Below are positions 3,627 to 58,161 of a DNA stretch of 64,000 nucleotides, piece by piece. The notes under the pieces were generated by a model, which was given only the letters and a program-made list of their open reading frames with translations, did no database searches and was not told the DNA's origin. Source of the stretch: Candidatus Kaiserbacteria bacterium RIFCSPHIGHO2_01_FULL_53_29 (GTDB lineage Bacteria > Patescibacteriota > Minisyncoccia > Phycocordibacterales > UBA2100). Position 1 is the first letter of the stretch. Every line of letters starts with the position of its first letter. The stretch is taken from NCBI GenBank assembly GCA_001781125.1, contig MFKT01000029.1:4040-68039 (forward strand), in the 5' to 3' direction. Both the position numbers and the translations under genes were made by a program.

Positions 3627-4694
3627 CTATTCTGTGGCCTTGCCCAAGCGGCCGGTCTCTATGTCGCGTGCAAGTTCCTGTATCGCCGCCGCCACGGGCA
3701 CAGAGAGAATGACGCCGAGGAAACCGGCGAGTTCGGCACCTATGATGAGCGCGAGGATCACGAGAAGTGGCGGCACGCCGACCACGCGCGTGACGACCAA
3801 CGGGTAAATGAGGTGATTCTCAAATTGCTGGAATATGACATAAAGCGCGACCACCAGAAGGCCGATCGTAACGCCGCCGTCTACAAATCCGATCATGACA
3901 GCGGGCACCGCAGCCAAGGTGGGCCCAAAGACAGGAATAATCTCGAAAACCGCGGCAATAACGGCCAAGACGAGGGCATGCTTCACTCCAAGAATCGTGA
4001 GCCCGAGATAGACCAAAACGCCCATGACGAGCGCCAAGATAAGCTGCCCCTGCATCCACAATCCGATCTTGTGCTGTGCTCTTCGCCACAGATCGAGAAT
4101 ATAGCTTTGGTACTTTTTTGGAGCGATAATGTGCAGGAAATCATCAACTCCCGTCTCCAATACCGCAAAGTAGAAAGAGAAGACGATGATCAAAATGAGA
4201 GAGAAGACTCCTCCGAAGATCGTCGAGATGGTGGTGAAAGCGTCGCCGAAAATGCTGCTGACGTCGAGCGCGCTCCTGATACTCGCCATAATGTCGTTGG
4301 ACGAGACCAGTGATGGCGCAGGAACGCCCAGTATGTTGGCATAGGTATCAAAGGCGCCACTGCGGCTGAAGGCATCAAGATACGTTGGAAGTGTTGCAAC
4401 GAACGTTGCGAAATCTTCGAGGATCGAGGGAAAGAAGAAGTAGAAGAGAACGAAAAAGAGAACGAATAACAAAAGATACACGGTGATAACGGCGAGAGTG
4501 CGCGGCAACCTCCAACGCATAAGCGCCCGTACTCCCGGCTCGATGGCTGAAGCGATCACGACGGCCGCAAGTACGTCCAAGACGATGCCACGAAGTGTGA
4601 AAAGAAGCCACGCAGCTACCAAGATGACGATGGCTTTGACCACCGTCCCCGCCGTGATAGACACATTGATGGAGCGGTCTTCCATTCCCCGCAT
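3627..4694 (-). CDS. AI-2E family (PerM/UPF0118) membrane transporter
   Basis: ORF 3627..4787 trimmed to internal Met to avoid overlap with glyQS; 8 TM helix pattern typical of AI-2E family. Confidence 0.55.
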   Translation of the reverse strand: MRGMEDRSINVSITAGTVVKAIVILVAAWLLFTLRGIVLDVLAAVVIASAIEPGVRALMRWRLPRTLAVITVYLLLFVLFFVLFYFFFPSILEDFATFVATLPTYLDAFSRSGAFDTYANILGVPAPSLVSSNDIMASIRSALDVSSIFGDAFTTISTIFGGVFSLILIIVFSFYFAVLETGVDDFLHIIAPKKYQSYILDLWRRAQHKIGLWMQGQLILALVMGVLVYLGLTILGVKHALVLAVIAAVFEIIPVFGPTLAAVPAVMIGFVDGGVTIGLLVVALYVIFQQFENHLIYPLVVTRVVGVPPLLVILALIIGAELAGFLGVILSVPVAAAIQELARDIETGRLGKATE

Positions 4695-6215: not shown

Positions 6216-8180
6216 TCACTTTACCACAGTGGCATTGACCGCACTAAATCCAGGATCGCCGAGAATATTCGTCGTGACGTCCTTCACGTTGCGCGTTATC
6301 GGGGCATTCGTCGACGCATCAGTACCGCTCAAAGAAATATTCTGCAGAAGCGGCGGCTCCTGACCGATCTGGCTCGTGGAGGGGGTGAAGCCGATCGCGA
6401 TCGCGACCTGTCGTGGTTGGGTCCCATTCAATCCCACCCCCGGCGCGATATCGCCCATGTTCCATGTGACGGTGCCATTGCTTTGGTTGAACGTCAGCTT
6501 CCCTGTGTCCGGATCACATTCCGAACGAGGACTGCAGATCCCTACATAGCGCACATAGGGCGGCAGATGCGCGGTGACCTTTGCATCAGAAATTTTATTC
6601 GTGGTGTTCGTGACCGTAAAGACAATGGCGTAGGTGGTTTCCGTCCCCGCCTTCGACGGCATTGGCCCGACACTGCCGAATGGATTCGCATAGTAGAGTC
6701 CCTGTGCCGTGAGCGATAGATCGCTTGCAAGTGAGACTTTTTGGCTCGCTGTGGCCTGTAAGTTTTCCGGCACACCCGATTCTGATACGCGCTTGCCGGC
6801 GGCATTAACAGAAATATTCAGGCGCGGATTGATTATTGTTTTGAGAGTGTCGCTCGTAGGCATTTTGAATGAGAATCCGACCGTTCCGTGGGCATTCGGA
6901 GACAAATTTGTCAGGACACCTCCCGTCGTGGTCTTATCCCAAAGCAGCGTCCCGTCGCTGGATCGATAGAAGCCATCGCTTGTGTGGAGTGTGCTTCCAT
7001 CTATTTCAAATCCAGAGAGCCGCGCCACAATGACCGCATCGAGAATGCTCGTGGGAAGATTATTTTGCCACGCGATCGAGACGGTGACATTGTCCCCGGG
7101 AGAAACGACGACACCAGGCCCCGAAGCGCCATTGATAGAAACGGCGAGACCGAGAAAGGGTCTGGATACCGATATCTTGAATATATTGTCTGCCAAGAAC
7201 CTCTGGATCACCGTGGAAGTCGCGTCGTGGCGCGTGCCAGCGCTAAAGTGAAAGACCCGATCATCGCCTTCTTGTCCGGAGAGCGTACCGTTGATCGTGA
7301 CCGTGCGTTTTTGCCCCGGTGCCAAGTCCCCGATCCACCACAGGTTGCCACTTGAAGGTGGGGGTAGCGCGGAGGAGAATTTGAAGCCGAACGGATACTG
7401 TGCACTTAAGAGCACGTCTTTGACCGGAGCATTCGCGTTGGAAGTGACAGAAACGGTGAGCTCCACCGGCTGGCCGGAAATGGTGTCGTTATTGCCCTCG
7501 ACCACAAGCGAGAGGGGCGAGGAACTGAAAGTAACACTGTAATCCGATGACGCAAGAAAGATCGCACTGGATCCATCGATACGATATTCAAGCTCGACTT
7601 TGATGTCGGCATGTTCGCCCTCGTTCCCGGCAAAGACCGCCGAGACCGTGCCCTGTCTCGTGCCTCCCGACTCGATCGTGCCGAGCGAGATACGCTGACT
7701 CTGAAGTGTCGTCGCAAAATCGGTCGGTGATCGTGTCCCCGAAGGATACGTGATCACAAGATCCGCGAGCTCCAATTCTACTTTGTTCCTGTTCTCAACA
7801 ACGATCTGAAGCTCCGTGGGAAGCCCTCCTTCGATCTGCGGCGGGCCTGAAATGGAAATGCCGATATTATTCGGTGAAGCGACGCTACTCCCTCCACCGA
7901 AAAGAAAAAAGTATCCGAAAAATCCCACTGCACCGATAAAAAAGACGATGGCAATGCCCAAAAACCACCAGAGCGCCGATCGCGCAAGCCCCATCGCGCG
8001 TGGCGCAACAATGATGCCCGCAATTTTCTCTTGCGTCTCGACAAAATCCTCCCCCACAGTTCTCTGCGATGTCCCCAGTGGGCGGCGCGTGCGATCCTGG
8101 ATCTTCGGCGAGAGCGAGCGCGAGTACATTGCACGCCTCAAACGCTCGATCTTTTCCTTCTCATGTTCCGAGAGGTCCAT
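6216..8180 (-). CDS. hypothetical single-pass membrane/surface protein (654 aa)
   Basis: N-terminal cytoplasmic segment, one TM helix, long beta-rich extracellular region; no recognisable catalytic motif. Confidence 0.5.
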   Translation of the reverse strand: MDLSEHEKEKIERLRRAMYSRSLSPKIQDRTRRPLGTSQRTVGEDFVETQEKIAGIIVAPRAMGLARSALWWFLGIAIVFFIGAVGFFGYFFLFGGGSSVASPNNIGISISGPPQIEGGLPTELQIVVENRNKVELELADLVITYPSGTRSPTDFATTLQSQRISLGTIESGGTRQGTVSAVFAGNEGEHADIKVELEYRIDGSSAIFLASSDYSVTFSSSPLSLVVEGNNDTISGQPVELTVSVTSNANAPVKDVLLSAQYPFGFKFSSALPPPSSGNLWWIGDLAPGQKRTVTINGTLSGQEGDDRVFHFSAGTRHDATSTVIQRFLADNIFKISVSRPFLGLAVSINGASGPGVVVSPGDNVTVSIAWQNNLPTSILDAVIVARLSGFEIDGSTLHTSDGFYRSSDGTLLWDKTTTGGVLTNLSPNAHGTVGFSFKMPTSDTLKTIINPRLNISVNAAGKRVSESGVPENLQATASQKVSLASDLSLTAQGLYYANPFGSVGPMPSKAGTETTYAIVFTVTNTTNKISDAKVTAHLPPYVRYVGICSPRSECDPDTGKLTFNQSNGTVTWNMGDIAPGVGLNGTQPRQVAIAIGFTPSTSQIGQEPPLLQNISLSGTDASTNAPITRNVKDVTTNILGDPGFSAVNATVVK

Positions 8181-51867: not shown

Positions 51868-51938
51868 CCCCTCGTAGCTCAATGGTAGAGCATGTGCCTT
51901 TTAAGCACGTGACGGAGGTCCGATTCCTCCCGGGGGGA
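51868..51938 (+). tRNA. tRNA-Lys (TTT) with C1:G72
   Basis: D-arm GCTC-AATGGTA-GAGC, anticodon loop CTTTTAA, T-arm GGAGG-TCCGATT-CCTCC, A73; aligns position-by-position with E. coli tRNA-Lys. Confidence 0.65.
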
Positions 51939-51949
51939 CACGTGAGTAA

Positions 51950-52999
51950 TTAATCGCTGATGACCATGTAGTTATAATGGATGAGCGCACGCGCTCCTTT
52001 TTTGCCCACGAGAATTCCCGCCTCATCCGCGCCATATTGGGCGACACCGTATCCGAGCTTCTTACCCGCTTCGTTGCGTATCTCTATGGTGTCCCCTTTT
52101 TTGAATTCTCCCTCAATTTTTCTGACTCCCACGGGCAGCAAGCTGTTCGATTTCCCGGAACGAAGGACTTTCTCGGCTCCTGCGTCAACGTACACCACGC
52201 CGACCGAAAGTCCTTCGGAGTACGCGAGGCGACGCTTCACCGCCGATATCTTCTTCGTCGGTACGAATTTCGTACCCAAAGGTTTACCCTCAACAATATC
52301 AATAAGAACATGTCCACGTTTTCCGCTCACGACGTGGACCGTGATACCGTGCGCCATGAGCCTGCGTGCGATCGCGAATTTCGTGAGCATTCCCCCGCGC
52401 CCGCCGGTGGATTTCGTATCGGTCACATATCGTTCAAATGAAGCAATATCTTCCTCCCGTATCTCTGGAATGGTCACTTCTTCCTTTAATACCCCATTGA
52501 CGCTTGAGAGAAATATGACAGCATCGACATCAAGTTGGGAAGCGATGAGACCCGCGAGTTCGTCGTTGTCGGTAAAAACAAGTTTGCTGATAGAAATGGC
52601 ATCATTCTCATTGACGACCGGGATGATGTTCTCGCGAAGCAGATTCTCAAAACAACTTTTCATATTGGCATAGTGCTGCTTGTCTCTGAAATCTCCTTTG
52701 GTGACCAAAACTTGGCCGCACCGATGTCCTTTAGCGTCAAAGAACTTTGAGTAGAGGGACATGAGCCCGATTTGCCCTACGGCGGCAAAAACCTGCCTTT
52801 CGGCTGTCGCAGAAGCACCGTGAAGCGCGACAAGCCCCTTCCCTGTAGCTATCGCACCGGAAGTGATGAGCAACACTTCGATGCCCTGCGCACGGAGTCC
52901 GACGACCTGATTGACGATGTCCTGTACAACATCCTCAGCAAGTCGGTCGTTGCGAGAGATAACATTCGTACCTATTTTTACAACGAGGCGTTTGTACAT
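51950..52999 (-). CDS. proB: glutamate 5-kinase with PUA domain
   Basis: VVKIGTNVI...AA kinase motifs, C-terminal PUA. Confidence 0.9.
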   Translation of the reverse strand: MYKRLVVKIGTNVISRNDRLAEDVVQDIVNQVVGLRAQGIEVLLITSGAIATGKGLVALHGASATAERQVFAAVGQIGLMSLYSKFFDAKGHRCGQVLVTKGDFRDKQHYANMKSCFENLLRENIIPVVNENDAISISKLVFTDNDELAGLIASQLDVDAVIFLSSVNGVLKEEVTIPEIREEDIASFERYVTDTKSTGGRGGMLTKFAIARRLMAHGITVHVVSGKRGHVLIDIVEGKPLGTKFVPTKKISAVKRRLAYSEGLSVGVVYVDAGAEKVLRSGKSNSLLPVGVRKIEGEFKKGDTIEIRNEAGKKLGYGVAQYGADEAGILVGKKGARALIHYNYMVISD

Positions 53000-53003
53000 A
53001 CAT

Positions 53004-53774
53004 TTAGCTGTGAATGCCTTTTATTTTCTTATAGCCGCTTTGCATCGCACGCGCGAATATTTTTTCGAAACCACCGCGTCGAAGTTCTTTGAGTATTGCC
53101 TCAGTCACACCACCCTTGGTGGCCACCGAATCGATAAGCTTTTCAGGAGCTGTGCCCGACCGCTCAAGATACGCGAGCGCTCCCTTGAAGGTCTGGAGCG
53201 CGATTGCTTCGGCATTGCGCGAGAGACCGAGCGTCCGGGCACGCTTGCCATAGGCGGAAACAAAGGAAGAGACAATGGCCGGCCCGCATCCCGCTATGAG
53301 GGTGATGGTATCGAGATTGCTCTCTTTTTTCACTTCGACGAGAAGTCCGAGGTTTCCGAGTACGCTCTTTAGCTCACGCTTGTTCTTAGCAGCGATATCT
53401 CCCGAATAAAATCCGATCACTCCTTCGCCGTAGGCAACGGGAATGTTGGGCATGATGCGAGCGATAGAGCAGTTCACGCCATGAAGGCGCTTTTTCATCG
53501 CCTTGACACTAACACCTGCGGCAAGAGATATGATAGTTTTTCCTTCAAGAGTGCCCGTAATATCTGCAAGAACGCTGACGACCACAGAAGGTTTGACTGC
53601 GAGAAAGATCCAGTCGGCACTCTTTGCCGCGGCAAGATTCCCGCGGGAGTTATCGGAGACCGTGATGCGCGAACGAGGTACGCCCGCATTCACGAGTCCC
53701 TGTGCCAAGGCAGAGCCCATGTGGCCCCCGCCGATGACGGTTATTCTCTTACGCGCGAATGTGTCCTTTGCCAT
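53004..53774 (-). CDS. proC: pyrroline-5-carboxylate reductase
   Basis: ITVIGGGHMGSALAQGL Rossmann start, P5CR C-terminal dimerisation domain. Confidence 0.85.
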   Translation of the reverse strand: MAKDTFARKRITVIGGGHMGSALAQGLVNAGVPRSRITVSDNSRGNLAAAKSADWIFLAVKPSVVVSVLADITGTLEGKTIISLAAGVSVKAMKKRLHGVNCSIARIMPNIPVAYGEGVIGFYSGDIAAKNKRELKSVLGNLGLLVEVKKESNLDTITLIAGCGPAIVSSFVSAYGKRARTLGLSRNAEAIALQTFKGALAYLERSGTAPEKLIDSVATKGGVTEAILKELRRGGFEKIFARAMQSGYKKIKGIHS

Positions 53775-54978
53775 ATATTTGCCACTTATAGGTTGTTAAT
53801 TCTTTTAATCCGACCGGCCCGCGTGCATGCAACTTCCCTGCGGCAATGCCCATTTCCGAACCGAGTCCGAACACGTATCCATCGTGCAGGCGTGTGGAAG
53901 CATTAACGAAGATCGCCGCCGCATCGACTGAATCCGTGAACTGGCGAATGATCTTTTTATTTGAAGCGACGATTCCCTCGGAATGCCGTTTGCTGTGATG
54001 ATTGATGAACGTAATTGCTTCCGCGACATCGCTGACGACCTTGATCCCGACCGTCGGGCCCAAAAATTCCGTATCCCAGTCTTTTTCGGTCATCGTTCCC
54101 ACTGCCGAAAATTTTCGCGAGAGCGCATCGCCCAATACACGAACGCCGCGCGCGCGAAGCATGTCGGTGATGCGCGGGATGAAACGAGAAGCAATTTTCT
54201 TGTGTACGACAATGGTGTCGAGCGAATTGCACGCGGCGGGTTTGCTGATCTTCGCATTCACGAGTATTTTTTCGGCCATCTTGAGGTCGGCGCTTTGATC
54301 AATGTAGATCCGCGCACCCCCCGCGGCGTGCGCTAATACCGGAATGGTGGAGTCACTCAGGACGGCTTTCACGAGACTGTATCCCCCACGTGCGATGACT
54401 AGATCAATGTGCGTGTGTTGTTTCAGCAGTTTTGAAACGGCGCTCCGATCTTGGACGTAACTGACCGTGTCTTTTGCAAATCCGGACTTCTTGAGCGCAT
54501 TTTGTATACAATGATAAAGAGCTTGATTGGAATGCTTTGCCTCGCTGCCGCCTTTAAGTATTGCGACATTGCCGGATTTGATACACAACGCGGCGACGTC
54601 GATCGTCACCTCCGGACGTGATTCGTAGATAATCAGTATGACGCCAAGAGGGGTGCGCACTTTGTCTAGCACAAGACCGGTGCGATCTTTTTTGTGCTCG
54701 ATAATTTCTCCGAGTCCGCTTTTTAATTTTTGCACGTCGCGAAGTTTTTTGTTCAGTGTTTCCAAACCATGGGCATCCACGACAAGTCGTTGTACGAATG
54801 CTTCGGGAAGTTCATTTCTTTGCGCGTCTGCGACGTCTTTTTGATTCGCAGCAAGCAAATCCTTTTTTCGTGTCCGAAGTTCTTTCGCGAGCGCGCCTAA
54901 AAAGGCGTTCCTTTTTTTCTCGGAAGTCTTCGCGAGGTCGATCGCGGCCTGTCGTATGTTGTCTAGGTGGACTTTCAT
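53749..54978 (-). CDS. proA: gamma-glutamyl phosphate reductase
   Basis: ALDH-fold ProA with catalytic Cys (AACNSLDT); start moved to ATG (MKVHL). Confidence 0.9.
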   Translation of the reverse strand: MKVHLDNIRQAAIDLAKTSEKKRNAFLGALAKELRTRKKDLLAANQKDVADAQRNELPEAFVQRLVVDAHGLETLNKKLRDVQKLKSGLGEIIEHKKDRTGLVLDKVRTPLGVILIIYESRPEVTIDVAALCIKSGNVAILKGGSEAKHSNQALYHCIQNALKKSGFAKDTVSYVQDRSAVSKLLKQHTHIDLVIARGGYSLVKAVLSDSTIPVLAHAAGGARIYIDQSADLKMAEKILVNAKISKPAACNSLDTIVVHKKIASRFIPRITDMLRARGVRVLGDALSRKFSAVGTMTEKDWDTEFLGPTVGIKVVSDVAEAITFINHHSKRHSEGIVASNKKIIRQFTDSVDAAAIFVNASTRLHDGYVFGLGSEMGIAAGKLHARGPVGLKELTTYKWQIYGKGHIRA

Positions 54979-54985
54979 GCCGTGC

Positions 54986-55226
54986 AAAATGAAAACTCGC
55001 CTCTGCTATCCTACCAGTAAACTACCGGAGGATAACAAGGGCGAGATTTCCCGCGTACCACCTTGTATTCATATGCGCATCGCTGCGCAGATCTCTGTAG
55101 CTGGCTGACACCAGCGTCCCTGTTTTACGGTTGGGCTTCCGTCGCTCCTTATCGGGCGCAGCTCCGAGGCCGGTTCCCTATCTTGCGACAGGTACTATTC
55201 CTCTTCATTGCTTTTCGTGGCTAATA
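54986..55226 (-). promoter_or_regulatory. T-box-like leader: antiterminator (AAGG-UGGUAC-GCGGG...CUCGC-CCUU) competing with intrinsic terminator; candidate Pro specifier
   Basis: mRNA-sense AAGGUGGUACGCGGG (plus-strand 55050..55064) vs T-box consensus AGGGUGGNACCGCGG; terminator CUCGCC...GGCGAG + UUUUCAUUUU (54986..55045); loop GAAGCCCAAC (55131..55138). Confidence 0.45.
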
Positions 55227-56444
55227 CTATCGTTTCTTTGGCGTTTTGTCAAGGGTAGCATCCAATCGCTCCAGTGCCACCGAAAAGGCAGCGCGGCGCA
55301 AGTCGGTCTTCAGCTTTGTACTACGTTTCCAGACATTCTTCGCTTCCCGCTCAAGAAGTTTCCGTAGTTTGCCGAGGACTTTCTTTTCGGTCCAATGTTC
55401 GTTCTTGAGATTCTGTTCCCATTCGTAGGTGGACACAACGACTCCGCCGGCGTTGGCGAGAACATCCGGTACGACGTGGATCTCTTTCTTGAACAAAATG
55501 TCATCTGCTTCAGTTGTCGTCGGGCCGTTCGCCATTTCGAGTACAATGTGTGCTTTGATCTTCGCGGCATTACTCTTGGTGATCGCATTCTCAAGAGCAG
55601 CAGGGACAACAATGTCACATGTGAGCTCGAGTAGTTTCTCGTTGCTGATATTTTTAGTTCCCGGAAATCCTTCGAGGCTACCGTTTTTCTTTTTGTAGGT
55701 TTCCGCAGCATCCGGATCTAAGCCTTTTTCAGTGTAAATACCACCTTTAGAATCCGAGAGACCGATGATCTTGAACCCTTCGGCGACCAAGTTCCTCGCG
55801 AGAAAACTTCCAACATTGCCGAAGCCTTGTATGGCAACGGTCAGTTGGCTCGGCTTTTTCCTGGTGAGATGCGGAAGGAGCGCCATTAATACGTACATGC
55901 CCCCGATGCCTGTCGATTCGCTTCGTCCTTCCGAGCCGCCCTGATCAAGCGGTTTTCCCGTCGCAACCGCTGGAGTTGCTTTGCCGACGATCTTGGAATA
56001 CTCGTCAGCAATCAATCCCATGATGGTCGCGTTGGTTCCGACGTCCGGTCCGGGAACATCTCTTTGGGGCCCCAGAACGGGAGCGAGCTTGCGGACAAAC
56101 CCGCGCGTGAGGCGTTCCAATTCTTTTATAGAAAGTTCCTTGGGGTCTACTGTAACGCCGCCCTTACCACCTCCCATCGGTATCCCCGCGACTGCGCATT
56201 TCATCGTCATCCAGAATGCGAGCGCGCGTACTTCATTGATGTCAGCATCGGGGTGATAACGTACTCCGCCTTTGTAGGGACCGCGCAGGGACGAGTATTG
56301 GACACGATAGCCTTCGAATACCTTGAGCGAGCCGTCGTCCATCCTGACCGGTATCGAGACCTTCACTTCCCGCTCGGGTGCCGAGAGGCGCACTCGCAAA
56401 TCGTCAGATATTTTTTGCACCGCGGTCGCTCGCGTAAGTTGCAT
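55227..56444 (-). CDS. gdhA: NAD(P)-dependent glutamate dehydrogenase
   Basis: K-box GGGKGG, Rossmann GFGNVG; ELFV dehydrogenase family. Confidence 0.9.
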   Translation of the reverse strand: MQLTRATAVQKISDDLRVRLSAPEREVKVSIPVRMDDGSLKVFEGYRVQYSSLRGPYKGGVRYHPDADINEVRALAFWMTMKCAVAGIPMGGGKGGVTVDPKELSIKELERLTRGFVRKLAPVLGPQRDVPGPDVGTNATIMGLIADEYSKIVGKATPAVATGKPLDQGGSEGRSESTGIGGMYVLMALLPHLTRKKPSQLTVAIQGFGNVGSFLARNLVAEGFKIIGLSDSKGGIYTEKGLDPDAAETYKKKNGSLEGFPGTKNISNEKLLELTCDIVVPAALENAITKSNAAKIKAHIVLEMANGPTTTEADDILFKKEIHVVPDVLANAGGVVVSTYEWEQNLKNEHWTEKKVLGKLRKLLEREAKNVWKRSTKLKTDLRRAAFSVALERLDATLDKTPKKR

Positions 56445-56493: not shown

Positions 56494-58161
56494 CTAAATC
56501 GACAAATTCACCGTCACGTAGTTTGTCACGTGCGAACCGTCGGGCGCCAGACACGAAATCGTAAAGACGGTTGTGCTCGTGAGAGCCACTGTGGCAGCGC
56601 CGCCTGAAAGCGACGATTGGTTGAAGCTGCCGTCAGGAGAGGTTTCGGTGCAGTTGGTAACGCCTTTTGTACTCCAAAAGATCGAGGTGCGTGCGCCAAG
56701 CGGGACAGAAGCAGGCACTGCCCAGATGTCTACTTTCGGCGTGACCGCAGGAGTTGTCGTTGCCGCCGGCGCAGGTACTGTGGGAGTAGGCTGCTTTCGT
56801 ACTGGAGTCTGTTGGAGAACAGGTTTTTGCGGCACAGGGGCGGGAGGTGGAGGCGGGGTGCCGACAGGATAGCCGCGCCATGAGCAAAGTCCGTCGAAGA
56901 AAGACGGGGTGACGATCTTTGAGAGGAAATTAGTTGCCCATGGACGCGCCCGGCACCACTGCCCGACGATTCCCTGAGGCTGCGCGCCACCGAACGCATC
57001 AGTACCGTAGAAACCCGCGACTTCGATGTTGTTTTGTATATCACGCGTACCGGCTATCACGGTCGCACCTCTGTCCGTCGCCAAAATATCGCCTCGAGCC
57101 CCACCCTGCGGGGGCGCACTACTGTACACGTACGTCGACGTTGCAAAAACGATACGGGGATTTTTCGTGGTATCGAGCACCGGAGTTGTGTCGGCAACTT
57201 CCGCGTTCGTGGGAGCTGGCACGACGCTGCCTGATGAGACGGAAACACTAGGAGCGATCGTACCGGTGAAAGAACTGCCGGTCAAAGAGAGGCCAGTGTC
57301 GCCCGACGAAACACCATTACTGACTGAAGTCTCGGCATTGGTCGACGCCCCGACGCCGACAGCGCTGGGCGCGCCGGAAAGAATGGGTGAGCCGCCTGTG
57401 AGGCTTGAGCCTCCCGTAAGAGAGTTCGTATTCGCGAACGGATTCAGATCGGCGCTCGTATTTGTATTCGCTGCTGTGTTCAGAGCTGGATTCGTGTTCG
57501 CGGCCGGATTTATTGCTCCGCTCAGATCGGGAGATTGCGTGCCCCCTAAGAGCGAACCGAGGATGCTGTTCGAGCCACCCAAACCGGTGAGCCCCCCAAG
57601 GGGATTTGTTGTCGGCGCCACATACTGGGCACAGGGATTTCCGTTGATCTGCGAGATATCGGATGTTTGGAACGTTTGCGTGCAGCCTTGGGCGCCTGTC
57701 GGTGGTTGCGGTGGTTGTTTCTGGTCGTCTTTCTTGCTTTGCTGCATGAGCTTGCCCACAAGATCGCCCAAGGCTTTCATGAGCTGATCCATGCCGGCTG
57801 CATTTCCTCCCTTACCTTTCTCGTCGGTGAACGAAACTCCCTTGCACGTATTAGTATGCGAGCAAAAGCCTGTTACGCCCCGCGGATCCTTACAAGGACA
57901 CAGCCACGCACTTTTTGTCGGCGCATCGCATTTCTTCGTTTTGGGGTTGAAGTCAGGTCCGCAAGGACATGGCGCTTCAGCTTTGGGCACACACGCCAAG
58001 TCAGCCGTTTTTGGATTTGCCCAATTAAGTCCCTTTGCGGCCGCTTCAGGCAGTCCAGCCTGAATTGCGCCCTGCATCGCAGTTTGCGCATTCGTGTGAG
58101 TTGGAAATATAAACAAAACCGCAACAAGAACCACAGCAAAGGAGATTCGCCGACTCACCAT
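56494..58161 (-). CDS. hypothetical secreted protein, Cys-rich N-domain, Ser/Thr/Gly/Asn low-complexity middle, Pro-rich linker
   Basis: cleavable signal peptide (...THTNA-QT); no catalytic motif. Confidence 0.5.
   Translation of the reverse strand: MVSRRISFAVVLVAVLFIFPTHTNAQTAMQGAIQAGLPEAAAKGLNWANPKTADLACVPKAEAPCPCGPDFNPKTKKCDAPTKSAWLCPCKDPRGVTGFCSHTNTCKGVSFTDEKGKGGNAAGMDQLMKALGDLVGKLMQQSKKDDQKQPPQPPTGAQGCTQTFQTSDISQINGNPCAQYVAPTTNPLGGLTGLGGSNSILGSLLGGTQSPDLSGAINPAANTNPALNTAANTNTSADLNPFANTNSLTGGSSLTGGSPILSGAPSAVGVGASTNAETSVSNGVSSGDTGLSLTGSSFTGTIAPSVSVSSGSVVPAPTNAEVADTTPVLDTTKNPRIVFATSTYVYSSAPPQGGARGDILATDRGATVIAGTRDIQNNIEVAGFYGTDAFGGAQPQGIVGQWCRARPWATNFLSKIVTPSFFDGLCSWRGYPVGTPPPPPAPVPQKPVLQQTPVRKQPTPTVPAPAATTTPAVTPKVDIWAVPASVPLGARTSIFWSTKGVTNCTETSPDGSFNQSSLSGGAATVALTSTTVFTISCLAPDGSHVTNYVTVNLSI

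Follow-up and report, generated by a model that had tools for sequence, protein, structure and literature searches.

In the 64,000-nucleotide (nt) stretch of Candidatus Kaiserbacteria bacterium RIFCSPHIGHO2_01_FULL_53_29 that we analysed (contig MFKT01000029.1; hereafter the window), the proline synthesis genes proA (54978..53749), proC (53774..53004) and proB (52999..51950) lie in tandem on the minus strand as an operon, proA-proC-proB (51950..54978). ProA and ProB score above their NCBIfam cut-offs (491.8 bits with NF001221 and 265.7 bits with TIGR01027), ProB being full length at 349 amino acids (aa), and ProC reaches 176 bits with TIGR00112, slightly under the cut-off of 196.75. The gene on the 5' side is gdh, encoding glutamate dehydrogenase. 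From its stop codon (55227) to the proA ATG (54978..54976) the minus strand has a gap of 249 nt, and in this gap lies the leader that is the subject of this work. It resembles a T-box, the textbook RNA that reads both the identity of a tRNA and its charge.

The leader has its own predicted promoter. A sigma-70-type element at 55224..55252 (-) combines the -35 box TTGACA (55252..55247), a 17-nt spacer and the -10 box TAGTAT (55229..55224), which overlaps the gdh stop codon (55229..55227); it matches 10 of 12 consensus positions, and one such element was found where shuffled sequences led us to expect 0.2. The predicted transcription start, ~55217, falls at about the first base of the match to the Rfam T-box family described below. 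Read by eye, the pattern TTGACA-17-TAnnnT also stands directly 5' of homologous leaders.

Under permissive thresholds, the Rfam T-box model RF00230 aligned to 55217..55034 (-) over all 219 of its positions with 64.3 bits (E = 7.6e-14 on a 401-nt stretch; E = 1.2e-11 on both strands of the whole window), and this match is the sole T-box in the window. Where the model has 48 positions of distal Stem I, the leader has only 3 nt, and its Stem II is shorter as well. None of 200 shuffled sequences folds as well as the leader (z = -3.7). A second covariance model, made for the 5' decoding domain from relatives alone and with the window left out, recovered 55215..55106 with 30.4 bits (E = 7e-8, the E-values of this model being rough). 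Its second match, at 6890..6983 (-), scored 13.3 bits (E = 0.06), has many broken pairs and lies within a 454-aa coding region in the gene table of L111; we judged it to be due to chance. The leader is thus no borderline case but a true T-box from which one large and specific part is missing, and the end-to-end alignment bears out the T-box identity proposed in a preliminary description of this DNA made from its letters.

The 3' part of the leader can adopt two mutually exclusive folds. The T-box sequence and antiterminator (55037..55064, -) read AAGG-UGGUAC-GCGGG-AAAU-CUCGC-CCUU and fold at -11 kcal/mol: helix A1 pairs AAGG (55064..55061) with CCUU (55040..55037), helix A2 pairs GCGGG (55054..55050) with CUCGC (55045..55041) around the loop AAAU (55049..55046), and between the two 5' strands lies the bulge UGGUAC (55060..55055), whose UGGU is complementary to the tRNA 3' end A73-C-C-A and is invariant across all family members inspected. 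The intrinsic terminator (54986..55045, -) consists of a long hairpin, from CUCGCC (55045..55040) to GGCGAG (55001..54996), followed by UUUUCAUUUU (54995..54986); at -36.2 kcal/mol (z = -6.6) it is formed with the 3' strand of the antiterminator. These strings, the A1/bulge/A2 fold and the competition with GGCGAG are as the preliminary description had put them, as are proline specificity and transcription attenuation of the operon, in keeping with the Pro specifier, the terminator and the pro genes downstream. Its spacing of 6 nt from the U-run to a proA ribosome-binding site and ATG needs correction: the run ends 7 nt (GCACGGC) before the ATG, with no obvious Shine-Dalgarno (SD) sequence.

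The 5' part begins with a truncated Stem I (55160..55212, -), found both in the RF00230 alignment and by folding, which gives exactly this structure at -16.5 kcal/mol. At its foot, the base helix AGC/GCU varies in relatives between AU, UA and GC pairs in a model-fitted alignment, and a K-turn (GA motif) is recognisable at the level of sequence only, AGC-AAUGAA-GAGG ... CCUC-GGA-GCU standing against gCgaUGAaagGG ... CCcugGAGcu in the model. Above the K-turn, the helix GAGG (55203..55200)/CCUC (55169..55166) leads to a 7x7 specifier loop, AAUAGUA (55199..55193) opposite GAACCGG (55176..55170), with the S-turn signature AGUA/GAA. Here the stem ends: its apex is a 6-bp hairpin, CCUGUC-GCAA-GAUAGG (55192..55177), closed by a GCAA loop. 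The truncation of the distal half of Stem I is the most unusual feature of the leader and had gone unremarked in the preliminary description.

Both the register of the RF00230 alignment and the fold place the specifier at 55170..55173 (-): the Pro codon CCG (55173..55171) and, after it, the conserved purine G55170. MAFFT aligns this CCG-G of the window column by column with the CCC-G found in relatives. All 28 leaders that we could parse have CCN-G at this position (CCC in 21, CCA in six and CCG in one, the window); the codon begins with CC throughout and varies freely at its third base, which is the pattern expected of a proline specifier. Stem I itself comes in two forms. The short form, an S-turn internal loop under a small hairpin, is found in the window and in the related loci L025, L034, L036 and L039; most other relatives have an ultrashort form, in which a 4-6-bp hairpin carries the 7-nt terminal loop U-N-Y-C-C-N-G and up to 76 RF00230 positions are replaced by that loop.

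Downstream of Stem I, alignment and fold agree on a miniature Stem II (55143..55158, -), a 5-bp helix CGCCC/GG(A)GCG with the pentaloop GAUAA. In relatives, Stem II is likewise a 5-bp helix, with a GANGA loop (GAUGA, GAAGA or GACGA) and compensatory changes at five of five pairs. It is followed by the Stem IIA/B pseudoknot (55118..55142, -): helix IIA pairs ACGG (55142..55139) with CCGU (55130..55127), and in helix IIB the CCC (55135..55133) of the IIA loop AAGCCCAA pairs with GGG (55120..55118). Across the family, loop and downstream strand change together, as CCC/GGG, AGG/CCU, GGAU/AUCC, GAAGA/UCUUC, GAGC/GCUC, GUCU/AGAC and GGC/GCC, and loops paired with the downstream strand of their own leader form a mean of 3.52 contiguous base pairs as compared to 2.69 for strands taken across leaders, a value that none of 5000 permutations reached.

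Two further hairpins separate the pseudoknot from the T-box sequence. The first, GCUGGU-GUCA-GCCAGC (55100..55115, -; from the fold), contains the motif GUGUC, which the relatives also carry in a hairpin at this position; the hairpin is probably the equivalent of Stem III in this family. By eye, the hairpin is mostly longer in relatives, with a UGUC/GGAG internal loop, and plain in the window, with GUCA in its loop; its outer helix appears to covary (AGUG/CACU, GCUAG/CUAGC, GCUGA/UCAGC, AGCG/CGCU). The second, UGCGCA-GCGA-UGCGCA (55074..55089, -), was also found by folding, lies just 5' of the T-box sequence and is the one that Rfam aligns to Stem III.

The relatives on which these comparisons draw were sampled from DNA around ProA homologues in assemblies and metagenomes of the Candidate Phyla Radiation (CPR), and are given here by locus number. 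The ProA of the window is 100% identical to a protein that NCBI assigns to Candidatus Kaiserbacteria bacterium RIFCSPLOWO2_12_FULL, in the lineage Patescibacteria group > Parcubacteria group > Candidatus Kaiseribacteriota. The close ProA homologues with source names all come from the CPR: Kaiserbacteria, Parcubacteria, Gottesmanbacteria, Roizmanbacteria and 'Patescibacteria group'. A motif search found the T-box core AGGUGGUA(C/U) 5' of pro genes in 42 loci, representing 32 distinct leaders, and the 5'-domain covariance model matched 37 loci, always on the strand of proA; three of the latter had been missed by the motif search and have the bulge UGGUAAC, in which UGGU is retained. Homologous leaders thus stand in front of the pro operon at no fewer than 37 CPR loci, the gene order being either T-box-proA-proC-proB (window, L025, L029) or T-box-proB(short)-proA-proC (L047, L063). 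In the latter two, ProB (860-1495 in L047, 875-1492 in L063) is only ~205-211 aa long, and its match to the glutamate 5-kinase model, which has 363 positions, spans positions 3-169 and scores below the cut-off; the protein therefore has no PUA domain and an incomplete kinase fold. All 12 relatives tested with RF00230 gave full-length alignments, at only 27.7-70.1 bits as against the Rfam gathering score of 93, and threshold-based annotation therefore misses the family.

The 3' domain is conserved as well. An automatic test found a terminator hairpin in 28 of 29 leaders (median -27 kcal/mol), which takes up a median of 8 of the 9 nt of the antiterminator 3' strand and has a median of 8 U in a 10-nt tail; the 29th leader, that of L029, reads AUUUAUUUU. 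Since the relatives have a hairpin followed by a run of 6-9 U, and their SD-like sequences (GGA/GGAG) lie 3' of that run and outside the hairpin, the family is of the terminator type and not of the type that sequesters an SD sequence.

Covariation supports the structure in two alignments. In 17 ultrashort-type 5' domains aligned with MAFFT, 93.8% of the cells of the proposed structure, pseudoknot included, are paired and 13 of 22 pairs show compensatory changes, values not reached by any of 500 shuffles and compared with 22-38% paired cells in slid controls; these shuffles, however, ignore phylogenetic relatedness, and many of the metagenomic leaders are closely related to one another. The alignment derived from the covariance model, which covers 31 distinct sequences, gives 98.1% paired cells and compensatory changes at 14 of 18 pairs, figures that lean towards structure by construction, this alignment being fitted to the model. 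The truncated architecture with its compensatory changes is shared by at least 31 different leaders, from operons in which ProA is only 54-66% identical to that of the window.

Together, these results suggest, with a probability of roughly 85%, that the leader is a tRNA(Pro)-responsive T-box transcription attenuator of proA-proC-proB. From its elements, their covariation, the gene context and the conservation, we infer tRNA binding, sensing of tRNA charge and antitermination in vivo, along the following lines. Transcription would start ~7 nt past the TAGTAT -10 box that overlaps the end of gdh, and the nascent leader would fold the short Stem I, displaying CCG and the stacking purine G in the S-turn specifier loop; the miniature Stem II and the Stem IIA/B pseudoknot would form next, and the anticodon of tRNA(Pro) would pair with CCG. 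If the tRNA is uncharged, its free A73-C-C-A end would pair with the UGGU bulge and steady the weak antiterminator, allowing RNA polymerase to read into the pro genes; if it is charged or absent, the far more stable terminator would form and transcription would stop at UUUUCAUUUU. Capture of the tRNA presumably relies on the codon-anticodon helix, braced by the Stem II/IIA-B domain as in the ileS T-boxes of Actinobacteria, together with the contact at the 3' end. In bacteria, the discriminator of tRNA-Pro is normally A73, which would match UGGU; that the tRNA-Pro of this host does so is a prediction from this general pattern and from the invariance of UGGU across the family. With gdh directly upstream, the locus would couple the supply of glutamate and the synthesis of proline to the charging of tRNA(Pro).

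Several observations weigh against this reading, beyond the limits of the shuffles and of the model-derived alignment. At the Rfam gathering score of 93, the scan of the window yields tRNAs only; the preliminary description had proposed an RF00230 search as a check, and its outcome is formally ambiguous, with no match at the gathering score and a full-length, highly significant match beneath it. The leader falls short of that score because the 48 model positions of distal Stem I are reduced to 3 nt. Both the RF00230 alignment and the fold show a Stem I devoid of the AG bulge and the distal loop; hence the platform of interdigitated T-loops that contacts the tRNA elbow is absent, and efficient co-transcriptional capture of the tRNA is not guaranteed. 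An S-turn is not recognisable in Stem II, where the GAA...AGUA region of the model is mostly deleted in the alignment, and the T-box bulge has 6 nt in place of the usual 7. Finally, no tRNA-Pro gene was found in the window, in 60 related loci or in the contig extensions L111 and L112.

Other interpretations of the leader differ in where the codon lies and in what the 3' hairpin does. The preliminary description took as specifier the CCC, followed by A, in GGAAGCCCAACC (55140..55129), to be sensed by tRNA-Pro(GGG), and saw GAAGCCCAAC as an internal loop of an upstream stem. The triplet is indeed a Pro codon followed by a purine and lies in the unpaired loop of a hairpin; Rfam, however, puts that hairpin in Stem IIA/B and not in Stem I, so that GAAGCCCAAC is the hairpin loop of Stem IIA, closed by ACGG and CCGU, and its CCC is the IIB strand that pairs with GGG 55120..55118. 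The same loop positions read AGG, GGAU, GAAGA, GAGC, GUCU or GGC in relatives; because the loop varies and covaries with the downstream strand, it is neither a conserved Pro codon nor free for a tRNA, whereas the canonical position in Stem I, where we place the specifier CCG-G, holds CCN-G in 28 of 28 parsed members. This earlier assignment is almost certainly wrong. A translational T-box like those of actinobacterial ileS, in which tRNA binding frees a sequestered SD sequence, would account for the shape of Stem I, as the short and ultrashort forms without an elbow platform that were described earlier belong to translational T-boxes (PMC7583486, PMC7778990). The alternative hairpin of the window, though, runs straight into UUUUCAUUUU, the standard layout of an intrinsic terminator; its 3' arm offers no SD-like sequence at a workable spacing, GGCGAG ending 17 nt before the ATG; and the U-runs and SD-like sequences of the relatives are arranged as described above, with GGA/GGAG beyond the 6-9 U. 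We consider a translational mechanism unlikely.

Loss of distal Stem I could also have ended tRNA sensing altogether, leaving a decayed T-box with a constitutive terminator or leader, or the likeness to a T-box could be due to chance; the score under the Rfam gathering score and the loss of an element deemed essential in transcriptional T-boxes (PMC7583486) are in line with such a remnant. Against this stand the E-value of 1.2e-11, the maintenance of the truncated architecture, with compensatory changes, in at least 31 leaders of operons whose ProA has diverged to 54-66% identity, and a specifier in which CC is invariant and the third base varies alongside an invariant UGGU: a relic would not keep all of these, and we regard decay or chance as very unlikely. 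A different possibility refines the tRNA(Pro)-responsive attenuator and does not exclude it, namely that the elbow contact is made by other means, either by leader RNA (the GUGUC hairpin or the extra hairpin that precedes the T-box sequence) or by a protein resembling Trbp111/CsaA. Consistent with this, the GUGUC hairpin is conserved between pseudoknot and T-box sequence, and a gene for a 111-aa tRNA-binding protein lies 3' of the pro operon in L029/L030, L034, L039, L047, L060 and L063 (PF01588; NF007495, 153 bits; L029 6142-6477, L047 3486-3821, L063 3466-3801, L034 3535-3867, L039 3520-3843, L060 3572-3901). However, that gene is absent from the operon of the window and from most relatives, L062 is without any hairpin between pseudoknot and T-box, and no structural evidence ties either element to the tRNA elbow, which makes a helper of this kind doubtful. 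The Trbp111-like gene, being sporadic and found with both types of Stem I, was not adopted as the mechanism. In L029, the gene next after it encodes a class-II aminoacyl-tRNA synthetase.

Within the T-box superfamily, the tRNA(Pro)-responsive attenuator proposed here combines features of two known groups. PMC3858371, citing Brill et al. (2011), describes proBA and proI of Bacillus subtilis and B. licheniformis as controlled by proline T-boxes, which agrees with what the preliminary description had stated for Bacillus proBA. The leader shares with these T-boxes an S-turn specifier loop that presents a Pro codon and a 3' purine, a K-turn, a IIA/B pseudoknot, a UGGN-bulge antiterminator opposed to an intrinsic terminator, and anabolic proline genes downstream. 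It differs from them in that the distal half of Stem I, a stem of canonical length in Bacillus, is absent, Stem II has 5 bp and no recognisable S-turn, the bulge has 6 nt, the specifier is CCG and not CCU, the score of 64.3 bits lies below 93, and the host belongs to the CPR and not to the Firmicutes.

The second group consists of the class II translational ileS T-boxes of Actinobacteria, reportedly the subject of work by Sherwood et al. in 2015. These have a short or ultrashort Stem I, and structures are available from Mycobacterium and Nocardia (PMC7583486). As in this group, Stem I of the window, L025 and L034 is cut just above the specifier loop, and that of most CPR relatives is a hairpin whose 7-nt terminal loop holds the codon on its 3' side, with a purine next to it. 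Neither form has an elbow platform, and both presumably depend on the Stem II/IIA-B domain. Unlike the actinobacterial T-boxes, those of the CPR have a terminator with a U-run in place of an SD sequestrator, specify Pro and not Ile, precede a biosynthetic operon and not ileS, and have a far smaller Stem II with no evident S-turn or string of five purines; they also belong to another phylum. We place the leader in the T-box superfamily because antiterminator, terminator, specifier loop, K-turn and pseudoknot are all present, and count it as a new variant because the elbow platform and the S-turn of Stem II were looked for and are absent.

To our knowledge, every experimentally studied terminator-type T-box has an elbow platform, unlike the leader of the window. 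The platform is described as essential in transcriptional T-boxes and expendable in translational ones, a difference put down to the kinetic window that transcription leaves for binding (PMC7583486, section 6.2). The T-box database TBDB likewise reports longer Stem I elements in transcriptional T-boxes, its model with a truncated Stem I having been searched only in Actinobacteria (PMC7778990), and a census of 2008 records T-boxes from Firmicutes, Actinobacteria, Chloroflexi, Deinococcus-Thermus and two delta-proteobacteria (PMC2494555). We found no mention of a T-box in the CPR or Patescibacteria in the open-access full-text literature, within which a terminator-type, platform-less T-box of the CPR appears to be undescribed. 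Whether the CPR/Patescibacteria carry an undescribed T-box class of their own, of the terminator type, with neither an elbow platform nor an S-turn in Stem II and with Stem I reduced to a short form or a bare hairpin, is in our view an even call. Lineage-specific features may compensate for the lost platform, among them the GUGUC hairpin, a pause- or terminator-like hairpin followed by a U-run, or slow transcription.

A hairpin of the latter kind was observed in many relatives with an ultrashort Stem I: GC-rich and followed by 6-9 U, it lies inside the leader, just 5' of the T-box sequence and ~60-30 nt 5' of the AGGUGGUA motif (for example ACAUACACCAcuuggUUUGGUGUAUUUUUUUU, or L065 at about 735-770). 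It occurs in L040, L041, L045, L047, L056, L058, L063, L065, L071, L074-L077 and L092, often with an A-run on its 5' side that is able to pair with the U-run; the window leader is without it. This element resembles an intrinsic terminator or pause site, and might give extra time for tRNA capture in leaders that have no platform. A divergent leader was seen in L001 (117-345), which is labelled 'Saccharibacteria' and has the closest species-representative ProA. It scores 59.3 bits with the 5'-domain model of the family and has a promoter, an ultrashort Stem I (loop UACCCCG), Stem II, the pseudoknot, the GUGUC hairpin and a hairpin followed by U6; its antiterminator is not recognisable, with only GUGGUGGUAUC 36 nt before the proA ATG, and Rfam gives no match. 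L001 may have a different expression platform or be a degenerate member.

Some further features of these loci lie outside the leaders. The window is dense in tRNA genes, with seven in 64 kb, tRNA-Pro not among them; one of the seven, tRNA-Lys(UUU) (51868-51939, +), lies on the opposite strand, 11 nt past the proB stop codon. On the 5' side of gdh, an open reading frame of 555 aa (56494-58161, -) has no NCBIfam match, and its product shows an apparent hydrophobic, signal-like N-terminal segment and long low-complexity stretches rich in Pro, Thr, Ser and Gly. In L034, a CPR metagenome contig, ARAGORN reports a tRNA-Ser with the unusual anticodon ACT (A34) 3' of the pro operon, adjoining a divergent tRNA-Ser(GCT) (4053-4140, +, and 3879-3970, -); the Rfam tRNA model supports both genes.

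Conserved and covarying terminator-type leaders without an elbow platform contradict the stated pairing of a long Stem I with the terminator mechanism. If antitermination with tRNA(Pro) does take place, the platform would be no general requirement for co-transcriptional sensing of tRNA, and decoding would need a smaller minimal module than has yet been studied. With their ~150-180 nt, these leaders would also be convenient minimal scaffolds on which to do structural work or to engineer tRNA sensors. They also make up a CPR T-box family that threshold-based Rfam annotation systematically overlooks. Their presence extends T-box regulation to the CPR, where gene regulation is almost uncharacterised, and indicates that the reduced genomes of these bacteria tie proline synthesis to the charging of tRNA(Pro).

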